64,000 bases of DNA, from the sequence record PP989839.1; one strand, given 5' to 3'. Below the pieces are notes generated by a model that saw only the letters and a list, made by a program, of their open reading frames with translations, had not been told where the DNA came from and searched no databases. Position numbers and translations under genes: made by a program. Below, one piece after another: positions 724 through 28,096 of the stretch (within the stretch, counting starts at the first letter, position 1; the number at the start of each line of letters is the position of its first letter). This DNA is from Escherichia phage VTCCBPA_322.

Positions 724-3021
724 ATGAACGAAATGTTCTCGCAAGGTGGCAAAGGCTCCACTGGTATTCTTACCAATAAGCAAGCTATTGCCCGTCATTT
801 TGGTATTAAGCAATCCGAGGTTCTTTACTTCTCTGTTGGTGCTGTATTAGATGGTTATAAAGTCATTTATGACAAGTCCACTCAAAGGAGTTATTCCTTA
901 CCTGCTGGTATTCCATCTGGCACTACTGCTATTAGTCTAAGCACTGCTGCTGTACTTGTACACTCAGCAGGCAGTGAGGACTTAGGTACTTTGGCTGCTA
1001 CTCGTAAGGAATTTATAACTAAGCAGGAGAACTTTAATACAGGCTTTACTATTAGTACCCATAATGAGCAAGTAGTTACTCCTGGTGGGGTTTACTACTG
1101 GGCAGGGTCTTTACCTAAAGTTGTACCTCCTGGTTCCTCTATTGAGGAAACTGGTGGGGTGAATGCTACTGCATGGGTTAATTCATACTCCAATGCTGTC
1201 TTATGTATTAAGGATTTGCTGACACATCCACAGGGTGGCACAGTTAGTGTGGTTGGTTACATTTCTGGTACGGACTTTGGTGGTGGTGATTTTTACTGGG
1301 ATGCTACTCGTCCACGTAGTAAACATAATGGTATTACAGTATTCAGTCCTACTGTTCCATTTAGTGGTTTATATACGGATATACCGAATTTCCATGCTAA
1401 GGTTGGAGAGACTGCACCTGATGCCAATGGTTGTTGGGTGCGTAAGGACTGTGGTCGTAAAGTTCTAATGTCATGGGGTGGTGTAGATATTTCAGGCACT
1501 CAGCCAATGGATGCCGTAGTAACAAGTATGTGTACTTATGTGCATAATACTCGTCAGATTTTGGATGCTGATGAGAATGCTGTACTTAAGGCAGGGTTTA
1601 CTACCGGTACTCAGACCAAAGATAAGCACAATGTGTTTACCCAAGCTTCTGTAATCTTAGAGGGTAAGTATGTCACCATTCGTGGTAATGGGGCTAAGAT
1701 TGATACATATCACCCTGTCCACAGAGAACGTTCTGTATTTGTTCTTCGTAATGGTGGGTATAACATTTCTGGTTTTAAATGGAATGATGGGTACACTGAC
1801 TTTAGTACTTCCCCTACGGATACCCAGCACAAACAAGGTGAATGGTGGATGGGTATTGTTGCAGATGGTGCAGTTACTTTAGTAGCTGACCACCATGAAG
1901 TAACTGCTTCTCAGGTATTTGTACGAGCAGATGCATTTAATGCTACGGACTGGAATGAAAGAGTAACTGTACGGTATAGTAAGTTTGACTACATTACTAA
2001 CTACTGTTTCCTTAGTCGTAAGCTGAAACATTATGAGTTCAGCTACAATGAGGTTAAACACAATGGCCGTGAGTGGCATACTTATGGGGAAGCATGTGCT
2101 CCAACCACATACACCACACATACTATTATACGTAGTAATAACTTCTTCAATCAGATCGCAGAACAATCCTGTATTACTCCTGGGTCATACCATAAGTCCT
2201 GTCTGATTGTTAATAACCATTGTGAACGCTATCGAGGCATTTTCGTTGAGATTGGTTCTTCCAGTAATATCAGCATTCTGAATAACTACTCTTATTCCAG
2301 TGGTGAAAGGGATAGTTCTCATATCCTACTTGTATCTGGTGGGGTAGATGACGAACCAGAGGGTGGTTTGAATAACTTGTTGATTAACGGTAATGTGTTT
2401 GAGAGTGGACCGTATACGCTGCGGGAGTACAACACTGGTACTCCAGTTCGCAGAGGCATTACATTCTCTAATAACCACATTATTGATTGCCCTATGCCTA
2501 ATATGGGTAATGCTGCTTACCACTCAATGGCATTTACCAATAACTACTGCCAGCCACCAGCAGACTTCCCGTATCTGGTATGGGCAGGTAAGAATCCAAT
2601 TATTGAAGGCAATACTTTTGTTGGTGGGGTTATTCGTGCTAGAGATCTGGGTTATACCATTACTAACCCAATCATTCGTAATAACGTATTCCGTGATGGT
2701 AGTACTGTTCAGACATTCCCTGCATTAATTGATATGACTGACTTTACCCGTTTAGTTGCTGAGGGTAACGATGTAACTAATGCTACCTTTACTCGTGTAA
2801 TTGTTGATCCAGCCAACTGTACTTCGGTCGGGTTTAAACGTATTGGGCAGGCAGAGGGTTTTGAATCTAACCCAGCTACCTTGTATGGTGCTAAACTTAC
2901 GGATGTAATTAATGGTGATATTGTGATGAACAATAACCCAGGTAATGCTGAAGGTGGTTACGCATGGGTATGCGTAAATTCTGGTTCTAAACAATTTGGT
3001 AAAATTGTCGTAGCTGTGTAA
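724..3021 (+). CDS. tailspike / tail fiber with right-handed beta-helix (pectate-lyase-like) domain, putative depolymerase
   Basis: ATG with GAAGAGG RBS; 765 aa; Asn-rich rung segments (NNHCERYRGIFVEIG, NNLLINGNVFESG, FSNNHIIDCP, IRNNVFRDG) typical of parallel beta-helix tailspikes; strong terminator downstream. Confidence 0.65.
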   Translation: MNEMFSQGGKGSTGILTNKQAIARHFGIKQSEVLYFSVGAVLDGYKVIYDKSTQRSYSLPAGIPSGTTAISLSTAAVLVHSAGSEDLGTLAATRKEFITKQENFNTGFTISTHNEQVVTPGGVYYWAGSLPKVVPPGSSIEETGGVNATAWVNSYSNAVLCIKDLLTHPQGGTVSVVGYISGTDFGGGDFYWDATRPRSKHNGITVFSPTVPFSGLYTDIPNFHAKVGETAPDANGCWVRKDCGRKVLMSWGGVDISGTQPMDAVVTSMCTYVHNTRQILDADENAVLKAGFTTGTQTKDKHNVFTQASVILEGKYVTIRGNGAKIDTYHPVHRERSVFVLRNGGYNISGFKWNDGYTDFSTSPTDTQHKQGEWWMGIVADGAVTLVADHHEVTASQVFVRADAFNATDWNERVTVRYSKFDYITNYCFLSRKLKHYEFSYNEVKHNGREWHTYGEACAPTTYTTHTIIRSNNFFNQIAEQSCITPGSYHKSCLIVNNHCERYRGIFVEIGSSSNISILNNYSYSSGERDSSHILLVSGGVDDEPEGGLNNLLINGNVFESGPYTLREYNTGTPVRRGITFSNNHIIDCPMPNMGNAAYHSMAFTNNYCQPPADFPYLVWAGKNPIIEGNTFVGGVIRARDLGYTITNPIIRNNVFRDGSTVQTFPALIDMTDFTRLVAEGNDVTNATFTRVIVDPANCTSVGFKRIGQAEGFESNPATLYGAKLTDVINGDIVMNNNPGNAEGGYAWVCVNSGSKQFGKIVVAV

Positions 3022-3050: not shown

Positions 3051-3500
3051 CTATATGGAGTTCACTGTTTGCATTACCCTGACTGACACTGATGTTAGGG
3101 TAATTACTTGACCTGAGATATTGAACATACCCAGCTGGATACCATCTACCATAAACGGGTCTGTTGAACCGAGTGTGTAAGTAGCTAATACATTATCTCT
3201 GTTAGCAATGTCCGTACCTTGTACCTTAACACTAGCGTCTGAACCCACTATCGTAGTTCCATTGGTTCGCCTTGTTTGTGTTCTCCATTCCCTAGCTGTA
3301 CCAGCACCTCCTGCAATAGTTCCTGAGATACGTACACTAAACATTACCTGGGTATTTCTGGTTCTAACAGGAAACTTAAGATTACCCTCTTCAATTGTTA
3401 GTGCTGCTGTACCTCCAGGAGTTTTAGTCATGCCTGGTAAAGCAAAGTAATTGAACCAGGACTGGTCATTTACTGCCTGGTTCCCTGTCCACGTATACAA
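3051..3500 (-). CDS. hypothetical protein encoded opposite to the late module
   Basis: 450-nt stop-free frame (chance unlikely); TTG at 3500 or ATG at 3431 as start, neither with a strong RBS; Gly/Thr-rich product. Confidence 0.35.
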   Translation of the reverse strand: MYTWTGNQAVNDQSWFNYFALPGMTKTPGGTAALTIEEGNLKFPVRTRNTQVMFSVRISGTIAGGAGTAREWRTQTRRTNGTTIVGSDASVKVQGTDIANRDNVLATYTLGSTDPFMVDGIQLGMFNISGQVITLTSVSVRVMQTVNSI

Positions 3501-3520
3501 GTCCAGAAGGAAAGTATCTT

Positions 3521-3676
3521 CTAACTCGGTTGGGGGAAAGGTAGCAGTTCTGGTGGGATCTCTGAGATGTTATTAGCAGAAACTATTCGTTCCCCATAAC
3601 TTCCCACGACCAACAATCCTCCCTTCATTTTGCATACAACATCCTTACCACTTTGGAAAATATCTTTAATAGACAT
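3521..3676 (-). CDS. small hypothetical protein (51 aa)
   Basis: ATG at 3676 preceded by GCGAGGT RBS at 6-nt spacing; directly upstream of ORF 3051-3500 in a different frame. Confidence 0.35.
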   Translation of the reverse strand: MSIKDIFQSGKDVVCKMKGGLLVVGSYGERIVSANNISEIPPELLPFPQPS

Positions 3677-3800
3677 AGTTACCTCGCAGTCGATACCAGA
3701 CACTATGTCTGGATGTATTCCATCATACTAAGTATTATCTAAGAGTCATCTTATGATACGACCCTATTGGGGTTCCTAACTTTACAACTACGGTAATATT

Positions 3801-4130
3801 ATGAATGAATCGGGTGAACTGCTTCTAGTCAGACTGGAGGAACGATTGAAGACTCTGTTTGAGAACCAGACAAGGGACAGGCAGGACCGTGAGAAACTGG
3901 AGGAAACTCTGGGAGAACTACGGGATTCAATCAATGACATAGGCAATAGACTAAAGAATGTGGAGGATAGCTTAGCTAAGAATGAACCTACTATTGAAGA
4001 GTTCATCACCATTAAGCATAAGGTCGTTGGTGCCGGAATTTTTGGTAAGTGGGTATGGGCTGGGGCAGGTGCAATTATCGGGGTACTGGCTGCTGCAAGA
4101 CGGGAGATATTCGCATGGTTCGCAGGCTAA
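3801..4130 (+). CDS. membrane-anchored coiled-coil protein, possibly lysis-associated
   Basis: ATG at 3801; charged coiled-coil N-terminus and C-terminal Gly/Ala-rich hydrophobic segment (VVGAGIFGKWVWAGAGAIIGVLAAA); first gene of lysis cluster. Confidence 0.45.
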   Translation: MNESGELLLVRLEERLKTLFENQTRDRQDREKLEETLGELRDSINDIGNRLKNVEDSLAKNEPTIEEFITIKHKVVGAGIFGKWVWAGAGAIIGVLAAARREIFAWFAG

Positions 4131-4375
4131 AAAGAAAAGTAGAGTTAGTACCTAACTGGAAAAGATGCTGGAAGTGGGCATCAGTTCAAATTAGTACGTT
4201 TGGTTTAATTCTATTCTCTGCTGTAGATATCATCCAACCAATGATGACAGGATTACCTCGCCACATCCTGGATGATATTCCTCATGGTTCCAATATTGCA
4301 ATCGCACTGTTTGCCTTAAACATCATAGGTAGATTAATACGATTCCGTCCAAAGGAAAATTCTCATGAAAGCTAA
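4115..4375 (+). CDS. putative holin (two transmembrane segments)
   Basis: ATG at 4115 with GGGAGA RBS (ORF track used GTG at 4049); basic N-terminus, two hydrophobic helices, charged C-terminus; immediately upstream of endolysin. Confidence 0.5.
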   Translation: MVRRLKRKVELVPNWKRCWKWASVQISTFGLILFSAVDIIQPMMTGLPRHILDDIPHGSNIAIALFALNIIGRLIRFRPKENSHES

Positions 4376-5000
4376 ACAGAAACTTGCTGCGAAAGGTGGT
4401 GCAGTGGGAGGAGTTGTCGCTGCTATTCTGGGGGCAGTGTTCTATATGGAAGGGGGTTATGTAAACAATCCTCGTGACCCAGGTGGGGAAACTAATCATG
4501 GTATTACCCAATCAGTAGCTAAGTCTCACAAAGAAGTTCTGGCTACTGAGTATGGTTGGGATGGTTCTATGAAGGGTTTATCTAAAGAGATGGCTGCTGA
4601 GATATACATTGATGACTACGTACTTAAGCCTAACTTCGTAGCCTTCGCTGATATATCTCCTGCTGTAACACATAAGCTGGTAGATGCTGGTGTTAATACT
4701 GGTGTGACTCGCCCGGCTAAGTGGTTACAGTTATCCCTTAATGAAATGTCCCGTGATGGCAAAGACTACCCTAAAATACAGGTTGATGGTAAAGTCGGTG
4801 TAAGTACTGTTAATGCATATAAAGCATTACAGAAAAAACGAGGCAAAGTTGCAGCATGTCAAGTAATGATTAAGCTGCTTGATGCTAAACAACTGAACCA
4901 CTATACCTCATTAAACATGCCAGACTTTACGTATGGTTGGGTAGCTAACCGAATTGGCAATGTGCCACTGGAGGCATGTAATGAAGACGCTAATCTCTAA
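4365..5000 (+). CDS. endolysin, glycoside hydrolase family 108 N-acetylmuramidase with PG-binding C-terminal domain (N4 gp61-like)
   Basis: ATG with AGGAAA RBS; N-terminal signature EGGYVNNPRDPGGETNHGIT typical of GH108; preceded by Gly/Ala-rich hydrophobic stretch suggestive of a SAR anchor. Confidence 0.8.
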   Translation: MKAKQKLAAKGGAVGGVVAAILGAVFYMEGGYVNNPRDPGGETNHGITQSVAKSHKEVLATEYGWDGSMKGLSKEMAAEIYIDDYVLKPNFVAFADISPAVTHKLVDAGVNTGVTRPAKWLQLSLNEMSRDGKDYPKIQVDGKVGVSTVNAYKALQKKRGKVAACQVMIKLLDAKQLNHYTSLNMPDFTYGWVANRIGNVPLEACNEDANL

Positions 5001-5487
5001 AGGTTGGCCTTATCTTCTGGTGGTGGTCCTTGGGGCCACCATTTACTTTTGGGGCAATTCCAATGGACAGTCTACTGTTCAAAAGAAATGGGATGCCCAA
5101 AAGGTTGAAGACCAAAAGGCAACACAAAAATTACAGGACAAATACAATGCTCTCCAAAGAAACCATAGTTATGAAGTCGGGTTACTCACTTCCCGGTTGC
5201 AGACGGCTGAGAGTAATTACGCAAGCGAGCTTGCTCGCGTTAGCAGTGATTACGACAGCCGGATGCAACAGTCTGAAAGGCGAGCATCGGTATATAAACG
5301 TCAAGCCGAAGCCGGAACCCTTGAGTGCAGAAGTCTTGCAAGCCATGCAGCCAGACTCGACAATAGTCTTGAAGAAGGCAGACGTTTGGTTGAAGAACTC
5401 CGGGCAACTGTTAGACTCCGTGACAACCAACTAATTGAGTTGGGTAAACAAATTCAGGCTGACCGTAAACTTTTTGAACAGGAATAA
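4981..5487 (+). CDS. i-spanin (Rz-like)
   Basis: ATG at 4981 overlapping endolysin stop; N-terminal TM ([16 protein letters not shown]) then long charged coiled-coil periplasmic domain; contains embedded lipoprotein ORF. Confidence 0.65.
5171..5434 (+). CDS. o-spanin (Rz1-like outer-membrane lipoprotein) embedded in +1 frame of i-spanin gene
   Basis: ATG at 5171; signal peptide with lipobox-like ITTAGC; mature part short and Pro-rich (KPKPEPL); fully nested in 4981-5487. Confidence 0.6.
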   Translation: MKSGYSLPGCRRLRVITQASLLALAVITTAGCNSLKGEHRYINVKPKPEPLSAEVLQAMQPDSTIVLKKADVWLKNSGQLLDSVTTN

Positions 5488-5489
5488 CT

Positions 5490-7760
5490 ATGGAACACCA
5501 AGACACTTTTAAGCCTTTACCAGACCCGGCTCAATCAGAGAAGTTAACGGACTGGAAGAAGGAACCAAGTATCCAATTACTGAAAGGTGATCTGGAATCT
5601 GCTAAACCTGCTCACGATGCAATCATGGCACAAATTCGTGAGTGGAATGACTTAATGGAAGTCAAGGGTAAGGCTAAACCCCCAAAGGTAAAAGGGCGTT
5701 CACAGGTCCAACCTAGACTGGTTCGCCGTCAGGCAGAGTGGCGTTATGCTCCATTGTCTGAACCATTCCTTTCTTCTAATAAACTCTTTAAAGTAACCCC
5801 AGTTACTTTTGAAGATGAGTTAGCTGCTCGTCAGAATGAACTAGTTCTTAACTACCAATTCCGTACTCAGCTTAATAAAGTAAAATTGGTAGATGATTAT
5901 GTGCATAGTGTCGTAGATGACGGTACTGGTATTGCTCGTATCGGTTGGGAACGTAAGACTGTTAAGATTAAGACAGAAACCCCAGTCTTCCAGTTGTATC
6001 CAATTGAGAACCAGGAACAAGCAGATGTTCTTCAACAGGCTTTGCAGCTTCAGGCAGAGAATCCCCGTGAGTATGACGAAACAATGCCGGAAGATATCAA
6101 GGAAGCTGTTAACTACTTCAACGAAACTGGAGAAGCTACTTATGCAATCCAGACTGGAGTTACTGAAGTAGAGGTAGAGAAAGCACTGGTTAACAGACCT
6201 ACTGTTGAAATGCTTAATCCAAATAACGTAGTTATCGACCCAAGCTGTAATGGTGACTTAGATAAGGCTCTTTATGCAGTTATCTCCTTTGAGACTTGCA
6301 AAGCAGACCTTATGAAAAACAAAGACCGTTATCACAACCTGGATAAAATTGACTGGGAAAGTTCCAGCCCCATTACTGACCCAGACCATGAAAGTAAAAC
6401 CCCTAGCGATTTCCAGTTTAAGGATGCACTTCGTAAGAAGGTAGTTGCTTATGAGTACTGGGGATTCTACGACATCAATGATGATGGTTCATTGGAACCA
6501 ATTGTTGCTACATGGATTGGCTCTACTCTTATTCGTATGGAGAAGAACCCATTCCCTGATGGCAAGTTACCATTGGTAGTTGTTCCTTACATGCCACGTA
6601 AACGTGAACTCTATGGTGAAGCTGATGCTGAATTGTTAGGCGACAACCAGGCAATTCTTGGTGCAACTATACGTGGGATGATTGACCTGTTGGGTCGAAG
6701 TGCAAATGGTCAACGTGGTTATCCTAAAGGGATGTTAGATACCCTGAACCGTCGTCGATATGATGATGGGCAAGACTATGAATATAACCCAATGCAAGGT
6801 AATCCCAGTCAGTCCATTATGGAACATAAGTTCCCTGAGTTGCCTCAGTCTGCAATAGTAATGACTCAGATGCAAAACCAGGAAGCAGAAGCATTAACAG
6901 GTGTTAAGGCATTTTCTGGTGGTGTAACTGGTTCAGCTTACGGTGATGTTGCTGCCGGTATTCGTGGTGCACTCGATGCAGCATCCAAACGTGAGATGGC
7001 AATCCTACGTCGATTAGCTAAAGGCATGGCAGACATTGGTACTAAGATTTGTGCAATGAATGCTGTGTTCTTATCTGAGAAAGAAGTAGTACGTATTACT
7101 AATGAACAGTACGTGGAAATTAACCGTGAAGACCTTAAAGGTAACTTCGACATTGAGGTTGATATTAATACTGCTGAAATTGATAACCAGAAATCCCAGG
7201 ACTTGAGCTTCATGGTTCAAACATTAGGTAATACAGTTGACCAGACTATTACGTTATCTCTTGTAGCAAAAATTGCAGAACTTAAACGTATGCCTGACCT
7301 TGCACATGAGTTACGTACCTGGCAACCACAACCAGACCCTATGGAAGAACAGCTTAAGCAATTGGCAATTCAGAAAGCACAGCTTGAGAATGAAGAGTTG
7401 CAAAGTAAAATTGCACTCAATATGGCTAAGGCTAAAGAGGCTGCTTCTAGCGGTGACCTTAAAGACCTGGATTATCTGGAGCAGGAATCTGGTACTAAAC
7501 ATGCTCGTGATATGGAGAAACAAAAAGCACAATCCCAAGGAAACCAGAACCTTCAGATAACTAAGGCGTTGACAACACCTACTAAAGAAGGTGAAACTAC
7601 CCCCAACATATCTGCTGCTGTTGGATATAACGCTTTGACTAACGGGAACTCTATACCAGAACGTGACTTAGCTGCACAACAAGACCCAGCTTATTCACTT
7701 AGTTCCCAATTTTATGACCCTAGCCAAGACCCAGCATCGGCTCTTGGCATGAACTTGTAA
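5490..7760 (+). CDS. portal protein (N4 gp59-like)
   Basis: 756 aa; position between lysis cassette and scaffold/capsid genes; size matches N4-type portal; assignment by synteny. Confidence 0.6.
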
Positions 7761-17345: not shown

Positions 17346-17383
17346 TTCCTATATACGATATAAGTTTGAACAGGAAACATGCT

Positions 17384-20300
17384 ATGTCAACATTTGACCG
17401 TCTGGCAGGTTTCGCAGACAGCATCACTAATGCCAAGCAAGTCGATGTCTCTACTGCAACCTCTCAGAAGCAAGCTGCACAAGGGCAAAGCCCTTTCCAA
17501 TTAACCCCAGAGAATGCTTACAATCTCCAAACTGGTCGTGTAGGTAATCTTGGAATCGGTGCATTCGAACCAGGTTCACTTCAGGCAGATTTCACTCAAG
17601 CCTCTCCATTAGAAATTCTTAATAAATACGGTAATGAGCAAGGTCTACAGATTCTTAATAGCCGAGCTAATGCTGCTGATGTTGTACGTCAGGACTTATC
17701 TAAGCAACGTACTAACGCAGAAGCATTTGGTGATACTCTTTCTGGTGTTGGTCTTGGTGTTGCTAATACCCTTGGGGGCATTGCTGCTCTTGGCACAGGT
17801 CTGGTCAATGATAATGCCGGGGCATCCATTGCTTCCGGGATGGATTGGTTGAATGAAGGTGTACACAATCTACAGTCTGATGCACTGAATGCTACCCGTA
17901 AGGTTGTTCAGAATCAGAACCTGATTTCTGCACAAAAGAACCAGAAACTTTATGAAGAAGACATTAAGAATGGGGAGAGCAGTTTGGTTGCCTCCTTGTC
18001 TCGCATTGGTCGTGACGCTTTTGATTCCGTTGCTAATACACTTGATAATGGTATGGCTGCCACCGATGGACTGAGTGAAGGTGTTGGTTCCCTCTTTACT
18101 GGTGGTCCACTTATCCGTGGTGTATCTGCACTTGGTAAAGTAATGGTAGGTGGTGATAAAGCTATTAAAGGTATTACCTTAGCTGCTGAGTTAGGTTCAC
18201 GCCCTGCACAGGTTGCATTGTCTGCTGGTCGTGTTGCTGCACCTGCTATAGCAATTGGTGGTATGGAAGCTGGTGGTGCATACCAACAGACTGCTTCTGA
18301 AATCATGAAGATGTCCCATCAAGAATTAGCAAGTAAGTCTCCTGTTTATCAACAACATATTGCTGATGGTTTATCCCCTGATGAAGCTCGTCGTCAGACT
18401 GCATCTGAAACAGGTATCGTTGCTGCTGGCTTAACTGCTCCGGTTGCTGCTGCTACTGGTCCACTGGTATCCAAATTTGAACTCAACCCCCTTAAAGTAG
18501 GTTCACTGGCTGGTGCTGGCTCTAACATGCTACGTGAGACTGTAGAAGAAGGTATCCAGTCCGGTACTAGTCAGTTTGCACAGAACAAAGCAATTCAGGG
18601 TAATGTAGATGCTAAGCGTGATTTGCTTAAAGGTGTCGGTGAACAAGCAGGTCTTGGTGCACTTTATGGCTTCGGTAGTGCTGGTGTTGCTCAGGCTCCA
18701 GGTGCAACTGTTAAAGCTGTTGGTGCTTCTGCTGGGCCTGCTTTACGTACTACTCTGGCTGGTGCTTCTCTGGTTGGTAGTGCATTAGCAAAAGCTGCCT
18801 CTCCTATTACTAACATCCTGGTTCAACGTGGGGAAGAAGTTGCTAAGCGTAATGAACAAGCATCTCCTGTATCAGACGCTACAGTTAACGCTGCTGCACA
18901 AGAAGCTACTGCTCAGGCAGAACAAGCACAAGCAACTGTACAGGAAGCAGTAGATGCAATGGATATTTCTCCTGAAGAGAAAGCTGCTGCTACTCAGTAT
19001 GCTGCTGACTTAACTCAGGCAATGAAGTTTGACCCAGTAGAGTTAGAGCAAGCTAATCCAGCAATCCGTGAAGCTGTTTCTGGTTCCACTAACCGTGTAG
19101 AAGCTATTCAGAAGATGGCTGACCTGGTTAATACTGCTGAAGACCCTAACGTTCAAATGGAAGCTGCAATCCAGATGTATGACAACATCATGTCTATGGA
19201 TAGCTTCATTAATCGTGACCCGGGTGCTTTGGCTAATCTGGAACAGGGTTCTCCTGCTGCTAATATTGTTGACCAGTTCTCCGGTCTGATGGCTAACGTA
19301 CAGAATACTCCAAAGGTACTTCGTGCATTCCGTGCCATCCATTCTATGATTCAGGAACAGGCTGAAGCAGGTAAGTTAAAAGCTACTGAAGAAGCTAATC
19401 AAGCCCAAGCAAACAACATTGCTATGGCTGCTGATATGTCTCCAGAAGTATTGGATGCAGATTCAGTGAACATGGTTCTGAAACATGCAAGTGAAGGTAA
19501 GATTACACTGGGTAATCGTCAGCGTGCTGCCTTGCAATCTGCTGCTGCTTTATTACAAGGAGCACGGGAATTTGACGCTAAAGCAGAAGAACTGGGCTTA
19601 CGTCCTCAGGACATTGTTAGTAAACAGATTAAAACCGACGAATCTCGTTCTAATGAAGGTCAGTACTCTGCGTTGCAACATGCTAAACGCATTCGTTCTG
19701 CGTACAACTCTGGTAACTTCGATTTGGCTTCCGCTTATCTCGACGACTTTATGAAGTTCGCCCAGCACATGCAGAATAAGGTCGGAGCGTTGAATGAGCA
19801 TCTGATTTCTGGGAATGCGGATAAGAATAAGTCTGTCCATTATCAGGCTCTTACTCCCTCCCGTGAATGGGTACGTAGTCGTACTGGCCTCGGTGTCAAT
19901 CCGTATGATACCAAGTCGGTTAAGTTTGCCCAGCAAGTAGGACTGGAGGCCAAAACCGTAGCTGATATTGCTAATGCACTTGCTACGGCTTACCCGGAGC
20001 TTAATGTTTCTCATGTGAAGGTTACCCCATTAGATTCACGTCTGGACAAGCCTGCTGCCCAGGTGGTTAAAGAGTTCCGTCAGGGCAATCTTGACGCTGC
20101 TCAATCCCAACAGACCAATGAACCAGTGAATCAGGTTGATAAATCTCCTGCACCTGTGCAAGAGGCCACTACTACTGTACAGCCTAAAGCTAAACTAGTG
20201 GTAGAAAATAAGACTGTTCCTGTTAAGGAGACTAGTTCAAAAGCAGAAGAAGTCTCTACTACCGAATCCGAAAGGGATGCTTATGTGAAAGAAAATACTA

Positions 20301-23300
20301 TTTCACAGGACATCCTCAATAAGAGCGGTGATCGTAGAGAGAGTCCTTGGCTCTTTGCTGATGGTACTGTTGTTGGTTCTAACGGCGATCACATTAGCCT
20401 GTCCGATGTATTTGGTCACGATGGCTATCGTGATATGTCTTTGGATACTGGTGCTGTACGTTCTACTTTCTATAAAGGCAGTGAGCAACCATTCGTATCT
20501 TTGCAACTTTTTGATAATCAGAAGCTAACTACTGAACAATTCAATACTGTTCAATCATTCGTAGAAGCAAACAATGCACTGATTCAGATTGGTGTAGATA
20601 CGTCTGGGCGTAACACCAATAACGTTGAGAAGATAGAAGTATCACTGGCCCAACTGAAAGCAGACTATACCGTTGGTGGTAAACCCCTGTCTGAGATGGA
20701 AACAGTGTTCCCTGTCTATAACAATGACAAGACACCGAACCAGTTCCTGAAAGCATTTACCCTGCCGGAAGAACCTAAGTCTCGCACCATTGGTTCTGAA
20801 TCCCCTTTGACTGATGTTAAGCAAGCACTGTCTTCTGCTGCTCGCTTTGAAGCATTCACTCAAAAAGAAAATAACGCTCTCACAAGTGATGTGATTAAGC
20901 GTTATCAGGACTTAATGGACTTTGGTGAAACTCTGAAGACTACTTTGTCTGACCGTCTGACTAAGTTTCTTGCTAATAAGAATGTTGGTAAACGTTTTGC
21001 AGAAGGTACTGAGGCTAACCGTTGGGTAGGTGGTAAGTTACTTAACATCGTAGAGAAAGATGGGGATACCTTTAAGTTCAATGACCAGTTGTTAGAGACT
21101 GCTGTACTTGCTGGTCTGCAATGGCGACTTACTGCTACACAAAATGCTGCTGTTAAAGATATGAAAGACGTAGCTGCTATTACTGGAGTAGAAGCATCCT
21201 TGTTACCTGAAGGTATCCTGGCTGAATTTGAGAATGCTCAGACTCTGGTTGAAGCTACTAACTCACTGGCTCAAAAGATTGAATCTTACTGGGGTCTGAA
21301 TCGTAATCCTAATGCACCTCTGGGTTATACCAAAGGTATCCCAATGGCAATGGCTACAGAGATTCTGTCTTCTTTCATTGAGATGGGTGAAGTTAAAGAA
21401 TCTATGCTGGATGTGTCTGAGTTTGACCCAGCTTCTAATAAGACTGTTGGTCTGTATACTATTGAGAAACTGGATGATAATGATGCCATTAACAAATTCC
21501 CTACTGCTATTGAGGAAGCTGTCCTCGTAGAACCAGAAGAGAAAATGTACTTTGGTGATGATATTCCTTCCGTGGCTCAAACACAGTTACGTAATCCTGC
21601 TGTTAAGAATACCCCAGAGCAGAAAGCTGCTCTTAAAGCAGAACAGGCTACCGAGTTCCGTGTACACATGCCTATGGTTAACTTCTATGAAGCATTAGGT
21701 CGTGACAACATTCTGGAACTGATGGGTGCTGGTACTCTTAATCCTGAACTGCTGAACGTGAATACTGCTAAATCATTGGAAGGTAAAAACCTGTCCGTGT
21801 CCATGGCATATGATTCCTTGTTTGGTGTAATCAATCAATTACAGGAACAGGAGAATGGTCTGGATACGCCTATTCACTATGGTTACAACATGACCCGTGT
21901 AGGTCGTATGCAGATGCTTGGTAAGAACAACCCACAATCCAGCAAGCTGGTTCGTGAAGCAATTCTGCCAACCTTCTCTACTATTGACTTAAGTAATGAA
22001 AATAGCCAAACGTTCTCTGACTTCCAGTTAGGTCTGGCTCAGGCATTGGGCATCAAGGTTCATAATATGTCCCGTGAAGCTATGTCTGAAAAACTGACCA
22101 AAGCTCTGGAAGGTAATTTGAAACCTGCTGTTGATATGATGGTTGAGTTTGATAAGTCCGGTCACTTACCTGCTGATGCAGTAGATATTCTGAAGACATC
22201 TCTGGGTGGTGATAAATCATTCGTAGCTCTTATGGCTCTTATGGAATATGCCCGTTACCTTAACAGTACTGACCGTGCTAACTTTAATACCCCACTGTAC
22301 GTTGAAGCCGATGGTGTAACCAACGGGCCAATCAATGCAATGGTATTAATGACCGGTGGTAAGTTCACTTCGGATTGGATTAAGAATACTGCTAAAGGTG
22401 GTTTGTTCTTCGGTAAAGCTGGTAAGACTATGAACGAACACCGTTCACAGGATGACAGTGTTGACTTGTATGAAGCATCTACTAATGGTCTGCAACAAGC
22501 ACTAAATGAGTTACGTACTACTTACCGTAATAATGTTCCGGTCATGAACCAGATGAATCATCTTCAGAAGTTAATGGACCTGTTCATTAAAGACTTTAAC
22601 CTGAACGAAGACGGTACTTTGGACCTGAAACGTGGTATCGCTAAAAACCCACTGACTATTACCATCTATGGTTCTGGTGCTCGTGGTATTGCTGGCAAGA
22701 TGGTTAGTGCAATTACTGACACCATCTATGAACGCTTCAGTGATGTTCTGCAAGCTCGTGCTGCTGACCCTAGCATTTCCCCAGCTATGGCAATGTTTGG
22801 TAAGGAGGCTGCGTCTGAGGCTAATGCTCAGGCTATGCTGGATACTTTCCTTACATCTATGGAAGCACTGACTGGTAATGTTCCAGTTATGCGTAAAGGT
22901 CAACTGTCTATTCAACAGGTAGAAGGTGCTCTGACTGGTAAGTTAGACCCACAGAAATTTACTGTATCTGGTAATGCCCTGAAGAACTTACAAGAGAACA
23001 TGCTTCACCTGTTCGTTGAACCAATGCGTACTGGTATCCGTAATACTGTTGGTGAAGGTCTTATGCATTCTACTGAGAACTTGCAGAAGGCTACCCAGAT
23101 TCAGTCTTTGGTTCTGCAAGACATGTTCCAACAAGCAGTACAGGCTAAGCTGGCAGAAAAAGAAAAAGACCCAACATGGAAGAAGGGTGATTTCTTAACA
23201 CAGAAAGAACTTAATGAAATCCAGGAATCATTATCTCCACTGGCTCCAATGATTGAGACTGGTTCACAGACTTTCTACATTGCTGGTAGTGAGAATACTG

Positions 23301-26300
23301 ACGTTGCTAACCAAGTTCTGGCTACCAACTTAGATGATCGTATGCGTGTGCCAATGAGCATCTATGCTCCTTCACAGGCAGGCGTTGCAGGTATTCCATT
23401 TATGACCATTGGTACTGGCGATGGCATGATGATGCAGACCCTTTCTACTATGAAAGGTGCTCCGAAGAATACCCTGAAAATCTTTGATGGTATGAACATT
23501 GGTATCGACAACATCACTGATGCAAGTCGTAAAGCTAACGAGGCTGTATACACTTCCTGGCAGGGTAACCCTATCAAGAATGTCTACGACTCCTTCTCTA
23601 AGTTCATGAAGAATGTAGACTTCAGCAAACTGTCTGATGAAACCAAACAGGCTATCGCTAAATCTGCTCTGGAATATGACCAGCGTGAAGGTGCTACCGA
23701 TGACCTGTTACGTGTTGGTGCTGAACAGATTGAACGTAATCTGCGCAACATTGCTCTGGGTGTGGATATTCGCCACAAAGTAATGAACCAGGTACAGACT
23801 ACTGTTGACCAGATGGCTGCTGTAGGTGCTCCTTATGTGAACAACGGTAAAATCTCTCTGGAAGGTCTGACTGTAGACCAGCAAGTAGCTAAGCTGAACG
23901 AACTGTTTGATGCTGAGTTAAACAAGCGTCGTGATGCAGTACGTGCTGCTAAAGCAGAACCAGTGAAAGAAGTACCAGCAATGGAACAGGTTGGTCGTGT
24001 ACTGAAGTCTGGTGTACGTCTGCTGTCTAATACTGCTATCTCTAAGCTGGCTAAAGAGATGTCTCCGGAACAGCAAGCGGTACTGAAAGAAGTACAGAAA
24101 TCCCTTGCTGCTAAAGACTACAAAGTTGTTTATGGTACTCCTGCTCAATTAGATGCTTATGCTATTGAGAAGAATATTACTCGCCCAGCACCAGAAGATA
24201 TTGAAGCTGCTGAAGCAGGTAATGCATACGGCTGGACTAACTTTGATGATAAGACTATCTACTTAGTTACCCCTTCCTTGGAGACTCTGGTTCATGAATT
24301 GGTACATGCTTCTACTTTCGAATCTGTACTGGCTCATTATGAAGGTACTCCAAATGAAGCAGTCCAAAATATTGAAGACTTAATGAATCAGTTCCGTACT
24401 CTGGATGTTAAGGATGAATCTCCGGCAGTACGCGAAGCATATGCAGATGCTCTTAATACCATTAATGGTCATTTGTCTAATGGCTTCATTGAACCAGCAA
24501 TGGCTAAAGCTGCTGCACTTAACGAGTACATGGCATGGGGTTTAACTAACCGTGAACTAATTAGCAAGCAGAAGAAAACTACTGCACTGAAGACTATGGT
24601 TCAGGCTGTGTATGAAGCAATCAAGCGTCTGGTATTCGGACGTAAGAAAGCTCCCGCTAATGCAGATGATATGTTCTCTGGTTTACTATTTAACTCTGCT
24701 GTAGTTATGCGAGGACAAGCTCCTACTGCTGCTGTAGCCAAGGATACTACTCTGTTCCATAACAAAGCATACGGTGACAATACTCGTCTGGAAGAGCTAG
24801 GGAAAACCTTCGATAAACTGATTACAGACTACATTGGTTCAGAACCAGTACAACAAGTAATTCGTAAGGGTAAATTCTCTGATGCAGTAGTGAATGCAAC
24901 TAAAGTAACCCGTGATGTTCAGGCTCATGGCTTCACTATGAATATGCAGGAACAGCGTCTATTCACTAACATCGTTGCTGCTCTGGCTACTGAAGCTGCC
25001 ATTAGTCCTGCTGCCCTGGCTCGTGCACAGGAATACTATACGCATGTTACTAAGAACCTGACCGTTGAATCGTTCATGGCTGACCCGGATAGTACTAACC
25101 CTGCTGACCGTTACTATGCTCAACAGAAGTTCGATACCATTATGGGTGCTAACAATATTGAGTTTGATGCACAGGGCCGTTCTTCCTTACTGCCTACCTT
25201 TGTTGGTCTGGCAATGGTAAGTGAAGAGGTACGTAAAGTACTGGCAGACATTCCTGTTATGAAAGCAGATAAGCAATCCGGTAATACAGTTGATGCAATG
25301 CTGACTAACATTGGTACTGCTGCAATGGCTAGTCTGAATGCTCGTGTAGCGGGTGATACTAAGGCTACCAATGTACAGGAAGGTATGGATGCACTGGCTC
25401 AGACAATCATGCAGACGAGTCTCAATGCACAGTCCTTCTATGATTCCGTTGCTACTCCTAGTGGTAATGCTATTGACCGTGCTAACCAGTATCTGGTGGA
25501 TTCTATTGATGCATTGTCTACCCGTGCTTTAGAAGGTGCTCGTGAAGTTGCAGCTAATACCAAGAACCCGTTGGTTAAAGGTGCTGCTCATGCTGCACAA
25601 CTAATAGCTGCTATTGCTACAGAGAAGAATGGTGAAATCGTAGCTGAAGGCGTTATGGCTGCAATGAACCAGGGTAAAGTGTGGCAACCTTTCCATGACC
25701 TGGTTAATGACTTAACAGGCCGTACTAAGAGCAATGCTTCTGTATACGATTTGATTAAGGCAGTACGTGCACAGGTACAAGCTGACCGTCAACAGTTCCG
25801 TGAACATTTGCCTACCACTATCGCATCTAAGTTCAGCCGTAAGCTGACTAATGATGAATGGAAAGCAATGCATACTGGTATGGGTAAAACTGACTTAGCT
25901 GTTTTACGTGACACTATGTCTCTGGCTGAAATTCGTGACTTGCTGACTGACCAAAAGATTGTTGACCGTGAAGTGAATAAGCTGGAAGCAGACTTACAGA
26001 AACAAGCTGGTCGTAACTGGCCTCTGATTAGCCGTAAATCTAAGCAACTAGCTCAGTACATGATTAACGGTACAGTTGGTAATAACCTGCTGCGTAATGC
26101 TACAGCAATCTCTCGTATGCTGGGTGAACGTCAGGCTGCACGTTCTACTGTAGATGTAGCTCAACTGGATAAACTGATTACTCTGTATGCACTGGAAGCA
26201 ATGAGTAAGACTGACCGTGAGATGTTATCTTCACTGGCTCAATCAGAAGTTGATGGAATTGATTTTGCTACTTCTTACCTGGTTGGTCAGCGTAAAGATG

Positions 26301-28096
26301 AAATGGCTAAAGCCAAGTCTGACATGCGTGCAACCCTGAACCAGTACAAAGGTTATATCCCAAGTGAGACTAAGCAAGGTGTTAACCTGATTGTTGCTGA
26401 AGACAGTCAATTTGCTGATTTGATTGAGAAGTCTTATGTACGTCTGGGTACTTATCAAGGTAGTTCTGCTAATCGTGGTTCAGCACGTAGCTACTACTTC
26501 GCACCGGTACAGGCACAGGCTCCATTCTCACAGGGTATTCTACAGAACGTTCGTAATACTGCTGGTGGTGTAGACCTTGGTACAGGATTTACGATGGGAA
26601 CCATGGTGGCTGGTCGTATTACTGACAAGCCTTCTGTAGACCGTATCACTAAAGCACTGGCTCGTGGTGAACGAGGTAATGAGCCACTGATGCCTGTATA
26701 TGATGACAAAGGTAATGTAGTTGCTTATGAACAATCTATTGACCCTAACATGCTGAAGCACATTGAGGGTGAGAACCATCTTGCTCGTGCAATCGGTGTA
26801 TGGCGTGGTCGTCAGGTGGAAGAAGCTAAGGCTCAGCGTTTCAACGATATGCTAATTGAGAATCTGCATAGCATGTATGAGAACGACATTAAGATGTCTG
26901 CCTCTAATAAGTCCCAGTACGTTAACCTTCTTGGTTCTAAGCTGGACCCAGTAACTGCTGATGCCCTTAAGCTGATGAACAGTGAAACACGTCAGAAAGC
27001 AGAAAGCCTGTTTGGCGAAGGTGAACTGTGGGTTCGTCGTGACATGCTGAATGATGCACTAGGCTATCGTGCAGCTTCCGTTGGTGATGCCTGGTCTGGT
27101 AATTCTCGTTGGTCCCCGGAAACACTGGATACCTTTAAGAAAGCTATGCTTGGTGTGTTCGGCAACCGTGCCTACAAGTATGTAATGGGTGGTGAGAACC
27201 TGGTTCAGAACTTAGTTAAAGAAGCTAAGACTCTGATTGTAGTTAAATCAGTGGTTGTACCTGCTGTTAACTTCCTGGCTAACCTTTACCAGATGGTTGG
27301 TCGTGGTGTACCCGTTAAGAACATTGCTAAAAGCATTCCACAGAAGACTGCTGAGATTAACCAGTACCTGAAATCTCGTCTGCGTCAGGTAGACGCAGAA
27401 GCAGAATTACGTGCAGCCACTAACCCGAACCAGATTCGTAAACTTAAGGCTGAGATTCAGTCTATTACTGACAGCCATAAGCGTATGAGTATCTGGCCTC
27501 TGTTAGAAGCTGGTGAGTTCTCTTCAATTGCAGATGCTGGTATTGGGCGTGATGATATCCTGATTACTGAGGGTAAACTCCATGAATACATGGATAAACT
27601 GGCTGATAAGTTACCTAAGTCTGTACGCAACGCTGGACGTTATGCACTTATCACCAAAGATACTGCTCTCTTCCAGGGTATCCAGAAGACGGTTGAGTAC
27701 TCTGACTTTATCGCTAAAGCAATCATCTATGATGATTTGACTCAGCGTAAAGGTAAGACTCGTGAAGAAGCACTAGGACGTGTAACGGAGGAGTTCATTA
27801 ACTATGACCGTTTGCCTGGTCGCTTCCGTGGGTATATGGAAAGTGTTGGTTTAATGTGGTTCTACAACTTTAAGATTCGTTCTGCGAAAATTGCAGTATC
27901 CATGATTCGTAACAACCCGGTACATGCAGCTATGGCTATGTTGGCTCCAACTCCTACCATGTTTGGTAACGTTGGTTTACCTATTCAGGACAACATCTTC
28001 AGTATTGCTGCACAAGGTAATCTTGGTTACTCCTGGGGCTTCGGTCAGGGCTTACGTGCCCATAACCTTAACCCTTGGCTCAACCTCACTAACTAA
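17384..28096 (+). CDS. virion-encapsidated giant RNA polymerase (N4 gp50-like vRNAP)
   Basis: 3570-aa ORF (ATG 17384 with AGGAAA RBS; track start 17366 is TTG); central region has T7-like polymerase motifs: DG near PLYVEADGVTNGPINA, motif B-like KNPLTITIYGSGARG, motif C-like KIFDGMNIG; hallmark of N4-like phages. Confidence 0.9.
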   Translation: MSTFDRLAGFADSITNAKQVDVSTATSQKQAAQGQSPFQLTPENAYNLQTGRVGNLGIGAFEPGSLQADFTQASPLEILNKYGNEQGLQILNSRANAADVVRQDLSKQRTNAEAFGDTLSGVGLGVANTLGGIAALGTGLVNDNAGASIASGMDWLNEGVHNLQSDALNATRKVVQNQNLISAQKNQKLYEEDIKNGESSLVASLSRIGRDAFDSVANTLDNGMAATDGLSEGVGSLFTGGPLIRGVSALGKVMVGGDKAIKGITLAAELGSRPAQVALSAGRVAAPAIAIGGMEAGGAYQQTASEIMKMSHQELASKSPVYQQHIADGLSPDEARRQTASETGIVAAGLTAPVAAATGPLVSKFELNPLKVGSLAGAGSNMLRETVEEGIQSGTSQFAQNKAIQGNVDAKRDLLKGVGEQAGLGALYGFGSAGVAQAPGATVKAVGASAGPALRTTLAGASLVGSALAKAASPITNILVQRGEEVAKRNEQASPVSDATVNAAAQEATAQAEQAQATVQEAVDAMDISPEEKAAATQYAADLTQAMKFDPVELEQANPAIREAVSGSTNRVEAIQKMADLVNTAEDPNVQMEAAIQMYDNIMSMDSFINRDPGALANLEQGSPAANIVDQFSGLMANVQNTPKVLRAFRAIHSMIQEQAEAGKLKATEEANQAQANNIAMAADMSPEVLDADSVNMVLKHASEGKITLGNRQRAALQSAAALLQGAREFDAKAEELGLRPQDIVSKQIKTDESRSNEGQYSALQHAKRIRSAYNSGNFDLASAYLDDFMKFAQHMQNKVGALNEHLISGNADKNKSVHYQALTPSREWVRSRTGLGVNPYDTKSVKFAQQVGLEAKTVADIANALATAYPELNVSHVKVTPLDSRLDKPAAQVVKEFRQGNLDAAQSQQTNEPVNQVDKSPAPVQEATTTVQPKAKLVVENKTVPVKETSSKAEEVSTTESERDAYVKENTISQDILNKSGDRRESPWLFADGTVVGSNGDHISLSDVFGHDGYRDMSLDTGAVRSTFYKGSEQPFVSLQLFDNQKLTTEQFNTVQSFVEANNALIQIGVDTSGRNTNNVEKIEVSLAQLKADYTVGGKPLSEMETVFPVYNNDKTPNQFLKAFTLPEEPKSRTIGSESPLTDVKQALSSAARFEAFTQKENNALTSDVIKRYQDLMDFGETLKTTLSDRLTKFLANKNVGKRFAEGTEANRWVGGKLLNIVEKDGDTFKFNDQLLETAVLAGLQWRLTATQNAAVKDMKDVAAITGVEASLLPEGILAEFENAQTLVEATNSLAQKIESYWGLNRNPNAPLGYTKGIPMAMATEILSSFIEMGEVKESMLDVSEFDPASNKTVGLYTIEKLDDNDAINKFPTAIEEAVLVEPEEKMYFGDDIPSVAQTQLRNPAVKNTPEQKAALKAEQATEFRVHMPMVNFYEALGRDNILELMGAGTLNPELLNVNTAKSLEGKNLSVSMAYDSLFGVINQLQEQENGLDTPIHYGYNMTRVGRMQMLGKNNPQSSKLVREAILPTFSTIDLSNENSQTFSDFQLGLAQALGIKVHNMSREAMSEKLTKALEGNLKPAVDMMVEFDKSGHLPADAVDILKTSLGGDKSFVALMALMEYARYLNSTDRANFNTPLYVEADGVTNGPINAMVLMTGGKFTSDWIKNTAKGGLFFGKAGKTMNEHRSQDDSVDLYEASTNGLQQALNELRTTYRNNVPVMNQMNHLQKLMDLFIKDFNLNEDGTLDLKRGIAKNPLTITIYGSGARGIAGKMVSAITDTIYERFSDVLQARAADPSISPAMAMFGKEAASEANAQAMLDTFLTSMEALTGNVPVMRKGQLSIQQVEGALTGKLDPQKFTVSGNALKNLQENMLHLFVEPMRTGIRNTVGEGLMHSTENLQKATQIQSLVLQDMFQQAVQAKLAEKEKDPTWKKGDFLTQKELNEIQESLSPLAPMIETGSQTFYIAGSENTDVANQVLATNLDDRMRVPMSIYAPSQAGVAGIPFMTIGTGDGMMMQTLSTMKGAPKNTLKIFDGMNIGIDNITDASRKANEAVYTSWQGNPIKNVYDSFSKFMKNVDFSKLSDETKQAIAKSALEYDQREGATDDLLRVGAEQIERNLRNIALGVDIRHKVMNQVQTTVDQMAAVGAPYVNNGKISLEGLTVDQQVAKLNELFDAELNKRRDAVRAAKAEPVKEVPAMEQVGRVLKSGVRLLSNTAISKLAKEMSPEQQAVLKEVQKSLAAKDYKVVYGTPAQLDAYAIEKNITRPAPEDIEAAEAGNAYGWTNFDDKTIYLVTPSLETLVHELVHASTFESVLAHYEGTPNEAVQNIEDLMNQFRTLDVKDESPAVREAYADALNTINGHLSNGFIEPAMAKAAALNEYMAWGLTNRELISKQKKTTALKTMVQAVYEAIKRLVFGRKKAPANADDMFSGLLFNSAVVMRGQAPTAAVAKDTTLFHNKAYGDNTRLEELGKTFDKLITDYIGSEPVQQVIRKGKFSDAVVNATKVTRDVQAHGFTMNMQEQRLFTNIVAALATEAAISPAALARAQEYYTHVTKNLTVESFMADPDSTNPADRYYAQQKFDTIMGANNIEFDAQGRSSLLPTFVGLAMVSEEVRKVLADIPVMKADKQSGNTVDAMLTNIGTAAMASLNARVAGDTKATNVQEGMDALAQTIMQTSLNAQSFYDSVATPSGNAIDRANQYLVDSIDALSTRALEGAREVAANTKNPLVKGAAHAAQLIAAIATEKNGEIVAEGVMAAMNQGKVWQPFHDLVNDLTGRTKSNASVYDLIKAVRAQVQADRQQFREHLPTTIASKFSRKLTNDEWKAMHTGMGKTDLAVLRDTMSLAEIRDLLTDQKIVDREVNKLEADLQKQAGRNWPLISRKSKQLAQYMINGTVGNNLLRNATAISRMLGERQAARSTVDVAQLDKLITLYALEAMSKTDREMLSSLAQSEVDGIDFATSYLVGQRKDEMAKAKSDMRATLNQYKGYIPSETKQGVNLIVAEDSQFADLIEKSYVRLGTYQGSSANRGSARSYYFAPVQAQAPFSQGILQNVRNTAGGVDLGTGFTMGTMVAGRITDKPSVDRITKALARGERGNEPLMPVYDDKGNVVAYEQSIDPNMLKHIEGENHLARAIGVWRGRQVEEAKAQRFNDMLIENLHSMYENDIKMSASNKSQYVNLLGSKLDPVTADALKLMNSETRQKAESLFGEGELWVRRDMLNDALGYRAASVGDAWSGNSRWSPETLDTFKKAMLGVFGNRAYKYVMGGENLVQNLVKEAKTLIVVKSVVVPAVNFLANLYQMVGRGVPVKNIAKSIPQKTAEINQYLKSRLRQVDAEAELRAATNPNQIRKLKAEIQSITDSHKRMSIWPLLEAGEFSSIADAGIGRDDILITEGKLHEYMDKLADKLPKSVRNAGRYALITKDTALFQGIQKTVEYSDFIAKAIIYDDLTQRKGKTREEALGRVTEEFINYDRLPGRFRGYMESVGLMWFYNFKIRSAKIAVSMIRNNPVHAAMAMLAPTPTMFGNVGLPIQDNIFSIAAQGNLGYSWGFGQGLRAHNLNPWLNLTN

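Follow-up and report, generated by a model that had tools for sequence, protein, structure and literature searches.

A predicted N4-family o-spanin gene nested in its partner i-spanin gene within the lysis cassette of Escherichia phage VTCCBPA_322

The DNA analyzed here, referred to below as the window, is a 64,000-nt stretch of Escherichia phage VTCCBPA_322 (sequence record PP989839.1). A 1.9-kb region shares 95 to 97% DNA identity with the Gamaleyavirus genomes of UE-M6, PGN829.1, St11Ph5, Bp4, and G7C, and the phage is a Gamaleyavirus, a G7C-like and N4-like member of the Schitoviridae (Enquatrovirinae). Positions 3801 to 5487 of the plus strand form a compact cluster of five genes, with an overlap between every gene and the one after it, and the portal gene lies downstream of the spanin genes that end this cluster. 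In the N4 phage itself, the products of the corresponding genes have been described as a pinholin (gp63), a non-essential lysis regulator (gp62), and a SAR endolysin (gp61) (PMC12642591, a 2025 preprint).

The first gene of the cassette (3801 to 4130, plus strand) encodes a 109-aa homologue of N4 gp63 with a C-terminal transmembrane domain (TMD), whose hydropathy window is IFGKWVWAGAGAIIGVL. It matches phrog_5211 (E value of 2.7e-50), which is listed in PHROGs with function unknown; annotation notes of the Bp4 and St11Ph5 genomes equate the 109-aa protein with N4 gp63. By homology, this product could be expected to act as the pinholin that triggers lysis. It also contains the segment PTIEEFITIKHKV, the same as the N4 gp63 segment found in the T65I/T71A mutagenesis primers (PMC12642591). 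Many related GenBank records label the gp63 homologue as “tail length tape-measure protein,” which is implausible in view of its length of only 109 aa and its C-terminal TMD.

The second gene (4115 to 4375, plus strand) codes for an 86-aa membrane protein homologous to N4 gp62, with matches to phrog_1356 (holin; E value of 2.9e-30) and to the Pfam family DUF7940; its start is the one annotated in St11Ph5, Bp4, and UE-M6. Databases refer to this protein as a holin, whereas the N4 study considers it a non-essential lysis regulator (PMC12642591). The third gene (4365 to 5000, plus strand) encodes the endolysin, a 211-aa homologue of N4 gp61 that combines a GH108 N-acetylmuramidase domain with a PG_binding_3 domain (Pfam matches PF05838, 5.6e-20, and PF09374, 3.4e-07) and belongs to the endolysin family phrog_315. 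Its N terminus is Gly/Ala-rich and weakly hydrophobic, as in a SAR-type signal-anchor, with the hydropathy window GAVGGVVAAILGAVFYM. The spanin pair thus adjoins a lysis cassette, with the gp63-like, gp62-like, and GH108 endolysin genes just upstream, which is the expected location of spanin genes.

The gene just upstream of the cassette varies among the relatives: it is gp63.1, on the cassette strand, in St11Ph5 and an opposite-strand gene in Bp4 and UE-M6. In the window, the homologue of Bp4 orf14 and UE-M6_012 (phrog_17779, ∼208 to 217 aa), located on the minus strand at 3051 to 3703, is split into a 60-aa ORF (3703 to 3521) and a 149-aa ORF (3500 to 3051), both on the minus strand. The split is caused by the loss of 1 nt, compared with UE-M6 and Bp4, from a C run at ∼3533/3534 (TTTCCC-CCAACC versus TTTCCCACCAAC); this could reflect either a sequencing error in the homopolymer or a genuine pseudogene. 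Farther upstream, positions 724 to 3021 (plus strand) encode a tail fibre/tail spike protein of 765 aa, whose N-terminal ∼155 residues match many PHROG tail-spike families, while the rest matches a single tail-fibre family (phrog_24092). Such a pattern suggests that a conserved adaptor domain is linked to a receptor-binding module that can be exchanged. An ORF of 3576 codons (17366 to 28096, plus strand) is as large as would be expected of the virion-encapsidated RNA polymerase, a hallmark of the N4-like phages. No tRNA genes were found within the 64,000-nt window.

The gene at 4981 to 5487 (plus strand; ATG at 4981 and stop codon at 5485 to 5487) codes for the 168-aa homologue of N4 gp60, the i-spanin. 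Its first 20 nt are shared with the 3′ end of the endolysin gene, and its start is preceded by a Shine-Dalgarno (SD) sequence, GGAGG, at 4970 to 4974. The protein matches the PHROG family phrog_6197 (“Rz-like spanin”) over its full length (residues 1 to 166 of 167; E value of 1.6e-77). The top hydropathy window covers residues 9 to 25 (nt 5005 to 5055) and corresponds to an N-terminal TMD. The periplasmic domain is predicted to be ∼94% helical, with two coiled-coil segments, in the published tables for the G7C and EC1-UPM proteins, which are 95 to 99% identical to this one (PMC6139136). With one N-terminal TMD and a helical periplasmic domain, the protein has the type II inner-membrane topology of an i-spanin. 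The SpaninDB rows for the i-spanins of EC1-UPM and ECBP1 describe the same protein, with the same SD sequence, one periplasmic Cys, and two coiled-coil segments.

The only periplasmic Cys residue in the i-spanin is Cys116 (TGC, 5326 to 5328), and the mature o-spanin has none apart from its lipobox Cys, the same distribution (1 in the i-spanin and 0 in the o-spanin) as in SpaninDB. At least one periplasmic Cys, available for a homotypic intermolecular disulfide, is present in ∼96% of two-component spanins (Kongari 2018, PMC6139136), and such a disulfide can be predicted for the pair in the window. Among the relatives, the i-spanin Cys at the Cys116 column is missing in seven lineages: Axy12, JWAlpha, CRC2, Zuri, QDWS595, S6, and RG-2014, with the loss in Axy12, CRC2, Zuri, and QDWS595 judged over the region overlapped by the o-spanin gene only. 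The full-length JWAlpha i-spanin in SpaninDB contains no Cys at all. In S6 and RG-2014, it is the mature o-spanin that contains a Cys instead (VQCPKP and NVCPKP, respectively), a swap that fits the rule of at least one intermolecular disulfide.

The sequence-only reading of this DNA had placed an o-spanin lipoprotein gene at 5171 to 5434, in the +1 frame inside the gene at 4981 to 5487, and both the coordinates and the frame are correct. As first reported, this ORF (plus strand) consists of 87 codons. Positions 5171 to 5263 encode a signal peptide that ends in the lipobox TTAG-C, in which the Cys (codon 32; TGC, 5264 to 5266) is the predicted lipoylation site. The 56-aa mature protein is encoded by 5264 to 5431 and is followed by the stop codon TAA at 5432 to 5434. 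Whether it is counted from 5171 or from an upstream ATG at 5147 (see below), the ORF lies wholly within the i-spanin gene, offset by +1. The conserved core of the mature protein is encoded at 5291 to 5431 (plus strand); read in the i-spanin frame, these nucleotides specify a conserved segment of the i-spanin that starts with YKRQAE.

Lipoprotein signals were evaluated with an implementation of the PROSITE rule PS51257 that requires the sequence pattern, a Cys within residues 15 to 35, and a Lys or Arg among the first 7 residues. Counted from ATG 5171, the embedded ORF conforms to this rule: its Cys is residue 32, and Lys occupies position 2. In E. coli lipoproteins, Asp at position +2 of the mature protein is the retention signal that leads to Lol avoidance. 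The mature o-spanin begins with C-N-S and so has Asn, not Asp, at +2, as expected for an outer-membrane lipoprotein. While the signal peptide and lipobox of the sequence-only reading were borne out, its description of the mature region as Pro-rich was overstated: Pro accounts for 4 of the 56 residues (7%), three of them in KPKPEP, and there is no longer Pro run.

Searches of the o-spanin against the Pfam, PHROGs, and NCBIfam profiles matched no model. Small embedded lipoproteins are poorly covered by such databases, so the absence of profile matches is not evidence against the gene; its family membership accordingly rests on tblastn comparisons and on the curated spanin table. A scan of positions 3400 to 5700 found sigma-70-like promoters and intrinsic terminators no more often than in shuffled sequence, and it revealed no internal promoter from which the embedded gene could be transcribed. 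Translation of the o-spanin from the same late mRNA as the rest of the cassette is assumed.

An open +1 frame of this kind might be a chance by-product of i-spanin coding that yields no functional protein. To gauge this, the i-spanin protein was kept fixed and its synonymous codons were redrawn in 20,000 trials. Of the resampled sequences, 5.4% contained a +1 ORF of at least 87 aa with an ATG start; such an ORF carrying a lipoprotein-type signal was present in 1.0%. Within a single sequence, the embedded ORF is therefore only moderately improbable, and these frequencies, together with a product that the profile databases do not recognize, are what speaks for a chance origin. The comparison with related phages, however, is decisive in showing that the embedded gene is more than chance. 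In tblastn searches, either frame retrieved 158 phage records, with matching organism counts, from phages of Escherichia, Klebsiella, Shigella, Erwinia, Achromobacter, Pseudomonas, Stenotrophomonas, Burkholderia, Xanthomonas, Delftia, and Alcaligenes. Of these relatives, 25 GenBank loci (∼20 genera) were fetched along with 9 IMG/VR loci. In all 34 loci, the +1 frame is open and encodes a hydrophobic segment, a lipobox Cys in the corresponding place, and then a conserved domain of 56 to 63 aa, which answers affirmatively the question, raised in the sequence-only reading, of whether the embedded frame is conserved in relatives. The lipobox itself varies among them (TAGC, IVGC, LLGC, LTAC, LTGC, LSGC, ISGC, LAGC, LYGC, LSAC, ISAC, MTGC, and MAGC).

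Given the i-spanin protein of each lineage, the chance that the relevant span of 74 to 83 codons stays open is 0.2 to 6% per lineage; it is open in 19 of the 19 non-redundant lineages, for a summed log10 P of about −32 when the lineages are treated as independent. The frame, the lipobox Cys, and the mature domain are all kept in relatives with as little as ∼35 to 40% i-spanin identity. Over the same nucleotides in the 19 lineages, mean pairwise identity is 57% in the o-spanin frame and 58% in the i-spanin frame. The nucleotide entropy of the overlap is 0.65/0.74/0.91 at o-spanin codon positions 1/2/3, compared with 1.43/1.22/1.65 where the i-spanin gene is not overlapped, so that the overlap is about half as variable, and its most variable position is the wobble base of the o-spanin (codon position 3), not position 3 of the i-spanin. 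The equal conservation of the two frames and this entropy pattern indicate that both are under purifying selection. Only the wobble-position signal favours the o-spanin frame, and it does so slightly. A raw tblastn hint that the o-spanin frame is the more conserved of the two was dropped in view of the 57% and 58% identities over identical nucleotides; the seeming excess is due to the N-terminal half of the i-spanin, which varies more. An open frame, lipobox Cys, and mature domain retained in every lineage, variability that tracks the wobble periodicity of the o-spanin frame, SD sequences in front of the embedded start in relatives, and the functional gp60/gp60a pair of N4 (PMC12642591) leave the idea of a chance by-product effectively refuted and its probability close to nil.

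The pair was compared with the embedded class of two-component spanins as defined by Summer (2007) and Kongari (2018). An embedded “N4” spanin family of 12 phages, delineated by BLASTCLUST, includes G7C, EC1-UPM, ECBP1, Bp4, pSb-1, PhAPEC5, and PhAPEC7 (Kongari et al. 2018, PMC6139136). For EC1-UPM, the o-spanin entry lists an 87-aa precursor, a 56-aa mature protein (CNSLKDEH...), the lipobox TTAG, and 0 and 1 periplasmic Cys residues in the o-spanin and i-spanin, respectively (PMC6139136). The lengths of the precursor (87 aa) and mature protein (56 aa) and the lipobox of the embedded ORF match the SpaninDB entries for G7C, EC1-UPM, PhAPEC5, and PhAPEC7. In tblastn searches, identity was 92 to 99% to G7C, EC1-UPM, ECBP1, Bp4, and pSb-1; to N4, it was 56% for the i-spanin (E value of 3e-39) and 61% for the o-spanin (E value of 2e-23). 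The comparison with curated spanin families that the sequence-only reading had proposed thus found near-identical embedded pairs in the N4 family of Kongari 2018. The N4 gp60 gene and the embedded gp60a complement outer-membrane disruption in spanin-minus (Rz-am Rz1-am) lambda lysogens (PMC12642591), and by analogy the pair in the window can be expected to disrupt the outer membrane as well.

With a match to phrog_6197, a lipoprotein signal, lysis cassette context, a conserved frame, and a functional N4 pair, the nested o-spanin/i-spanin interpretation is upheld. It can be stated with high confidence that the ORF is the o-spanin gene of an N4-family two-component spanin, that it sits in the +1 frame of the gene encoding its i-spanin partner, and that the two form the 3′ end of a Gamaleyavirus lysis cassette. 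Such an embedded gene pair is already known: it has been catalogued, and its N4 prototype has been tested experimentally. The embedded gene is annotated in the GenBank records of G7C (gp60′, “embedded within ORF60”), St11Ph5 (gp60.1), Mimir124, AlfredRasser, Pokken, and Paxi; most other related records annotate the outer gene alone, as “Rz-like spanin.”

The ORF and its mature product at 5171 to 5434 are sound, but the start at 5171 is probably not the one used. The upstream in-frame ATG at 5147 gives an alternative reading of the o-spanin gene (5147 to 5434, plus strand) as a 95-aa precursor with a 39-residue signal peptide; the mature o-spanin is the same from 5147 or 5171, and the signal peptide is unusually long by either start (39 or 31 residues). 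ATG 5147 is preceded by the SD sequence AGGA at 5135 to 5138, with an 8-nt spacer, while a scan upstream of ATG 5171 revealed no SD-like sequence. ATG 5171 is created by the overlapping i-spanin frame, where the Tyr of the conserved motif YEVG is encoded by TAT. Neither ECBP1 (ACG, Thr) nor the metagenomic contig L034 (a Thr codon) nor Klebsiella phage KP8 has the equivalent of ATG 5171, and all three keep the equivalent of ATG 5147. St11Ph5 gp60.1 is annotated from the latter ATG, and SpaninDB uses it for ECBP1, with a comment that the choice is between a good SD with a poor LipoP score and the reverse, the downstream start being better by LipoP. Outside the Enquatrovirinae, most relatives have a strong SD sequence (AGGAG or GGAG, at 7 to 8 nt) before the embedded start, and the signal peptide in most of them has a normal length of 21 to 25 residues. 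Because an SD sequence is found at 5147 but not at 5171 and because the 5171 start is dispensable in three phages, 5147 is favoured, and it is probably the true start of the o-spanin gene, a choice made here with modest confidence.

It is less likely, although by no means negligible, that the o-spanin is made from exactly ATG 5171, as an 87-aa precursor with a 31-residue signal peptide, and that 5147 is not used. Only this start fits the PS51257-type rule; counted from ATG 5147, the Cys is residue 40 and thus beyond the range of 15 to 35. For N4, G7C, PhAPEC5, PhAPEC7, and, in one of its two tables, EC1-UPM, SpaninDB picks the 5171-equivalent, with the remark that the downstream start scores better in LipoP, and the annotation of AlfredRasser uses the 5171-equivalent as well. 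These choices have to be set against the lack of an SD-like sequence, the origin of the ATG in the choice of a Tyr codon, and its loss in ECBP1, L034, and KP8.

The presence of both ATGs in most of the Enquatrovirinae examined (Gamaleyavirus, Moo19, and N4) and of a third in-frame ATG in N4, which leads to a 15-residue signal peptide with the Cys at residue 16, allows for a further possibility, namely, that both starts are used and that the export and processing kinetics of the two precursors tune the build-up of mature o-spanin, loosely like holin dual-start motifs. Given that both precursors end in an identical mature protein, that the downstream ATG is dispensable in three lineages, and that its presence elsewhere is accounted for by the constraint from the i-spanin frame, such double use appears quite improbable. 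A broader form of this proposal, in which the o-spanins of the Enquatrovirinae would start at the SD-led upstream ATG with a signal peptide of 39 to 41 residues and 5171 would serve as a second start, with the differing export kinetics of the two precursors helping to set the rate of build-up, is doubtful, if perhaps marginally less so. With the start at 5147, the ∼20-residue N-terminal extension of the long signal peptide would be dictated by the overlapping i-spanin frame.

Still farther upstream, the +1 frame is free of stop codons for 146 codons from 4994, and a coding extension into this region, as in the 123-aa version of G7C gp60′, was considered and rejected. The extension is closed by stop codons in N4, KP8, Moo19, inbricus, and several IMG/VR relatives, and its likeness between phages mirrors the conserved i-spanin motif VQxKWDAQK (VQKKWDAQK in the window). 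The stop-free +1 stretch at 4994 to 5170 is probably non-coding in that frame.

Work on lambda and N4 suggests how the pair would function in this phage. Both spanins would be produced from the late lysis transcript. The i-spanin would be anchored by its N-terminal TMD in the inner membrane, with a mostly helical coiled-coil domain extending into the periplasm. The o-spanin precursor would be exported, receive lipid on the lipobox Cys, and be cleaved by signal peptidase II; the mature protein, having Asn and not Asp at residue +2, would then be sorted by Lol to the inner leaflet of the outer membrane. Binding between the C-terminal parts of the two proteins would create a periplasm-spanning complex threaded through the murein. 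Once the gp63-like pinholin has depolarized the membrane and the SAR endolysin has degraded the murein, the freed spanin complexes could move, collapse, and fuse the inner and outer membranes, removing the last barrier to release. For the phage in the window, expression, lipidation, sorting, complex formation, and membrane fusion are all projected from these better-studied systems.

The spanin pair represents the final step of lysis, disruption of the outer membrane, and the locus illustrates clearly how one stretch of nucleotides can encode two proteins while selection acts on both reading frames. Automatic gene callers overlook the embedded gene in most related GenBank records, so flagging it, together with the likely start at 5147, improves the annotation. 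Beyond annotation, the case is of little importance and raises no new question, given that the family was defined in 2007 to 2018.

Among the known systems, the closest are the Gamaleyavirus spanins (G7C gp60/gp60′, St11Ph5 gp60.2/gp60.1, and the SpaninDB entries for EC1-UPM, ECBP1, Bp4, pSb-1, PhAPEC5, and PhAPEC7), which are essentially the same genes, with amino acid identities of 92 to 99% for the o-spanin and 95 to 99% for the i-spanin. They share with the window the +1 embedding, the lipobox (T/M)TAG-C, the 56-aa mature protein, the single i-spanin Cys, and the slot between the endolysin and portal genes. The differences are limited to point substitutions, such as G38 in the window (NSLKGEH), where most of the others have D (NSLKDEH). 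Because the start codon is disputed, the length of the o-spanin varies by record: 75, 85, 87, 95, or 123 aa.

The type members of the family, N4 gp60 and gp60a, have the same +1 embedding, a 56-residue mature lipoprotein, and the conserved C-terminal motif, and the genes around them are arranged as in the window (gp63-gp62-gp61-gp60/60a-portal). The N4 lipobox is TIVG-C, compared to TTAG-C in the window, and an extra in-frame ATG in N4 gives a short canonical signal (MKSLLILLLTSTIVG followed by the Cys); this ATG is absent from the window. The N4 pair complements lambda spanin mutants (PMC12642591).

PseT.3/PseT.2 of T4 follow the same two-component logic, and the T4 o-spanin likewise lacks a proline-rich region (PMC6139136). 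However, the T4 genes are separate, not nested, and it is the o-spanin that has two essential Cys residues and the i-spanin that has none (PMC6139136), in contrast to the single Cys in the i-spanin of the window.

The sequence-only reading had called the locus a classic Rz/Rz1 nested architecture. This holds for the architecture: as in lambda, the cassette ends with the gene for a type II inner-membrane protein, whose +1 frame contains the whole of a lipoprotein gene, and functional interchangeability with the lambda pair has been demonstrated for the N4 homologues (PMC12642591). It does not extend to the lambda sequence families. Lambda Rz1 has a mutationally sensitive proline-rich region (PMC6139136), whereas the o-spanin in the window has neither a penta-proline nor a proline-rich region. 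Lambda Rz1 also has a periplasmic Cys, C29, and lambda Rz has two, C99 and C152, compared to none in the o-spanin and one in the i-spanin of the window. The predicted helix content is ∼37% for the G7C o-spanin and ∼5% for lambda Rz1 (Kongari supplement, PMC6139136), and the lambda and N4 spanins are separate families in Kongari 2018 (PMC6139136). At an E value threshold of 0.01, neither the 168-aa nor the 87-aa protein matched any Pfam family. The Pfam families of lambda Rz and lambda Rz1 are Phage_lysis (PF03245) and Rz1 (PF06085), respectively. The pair in the window, in short, is a member of the N4 spanin family that shares with lambda Rz/Rz1 the nested layout of its genes and not their sequence families.
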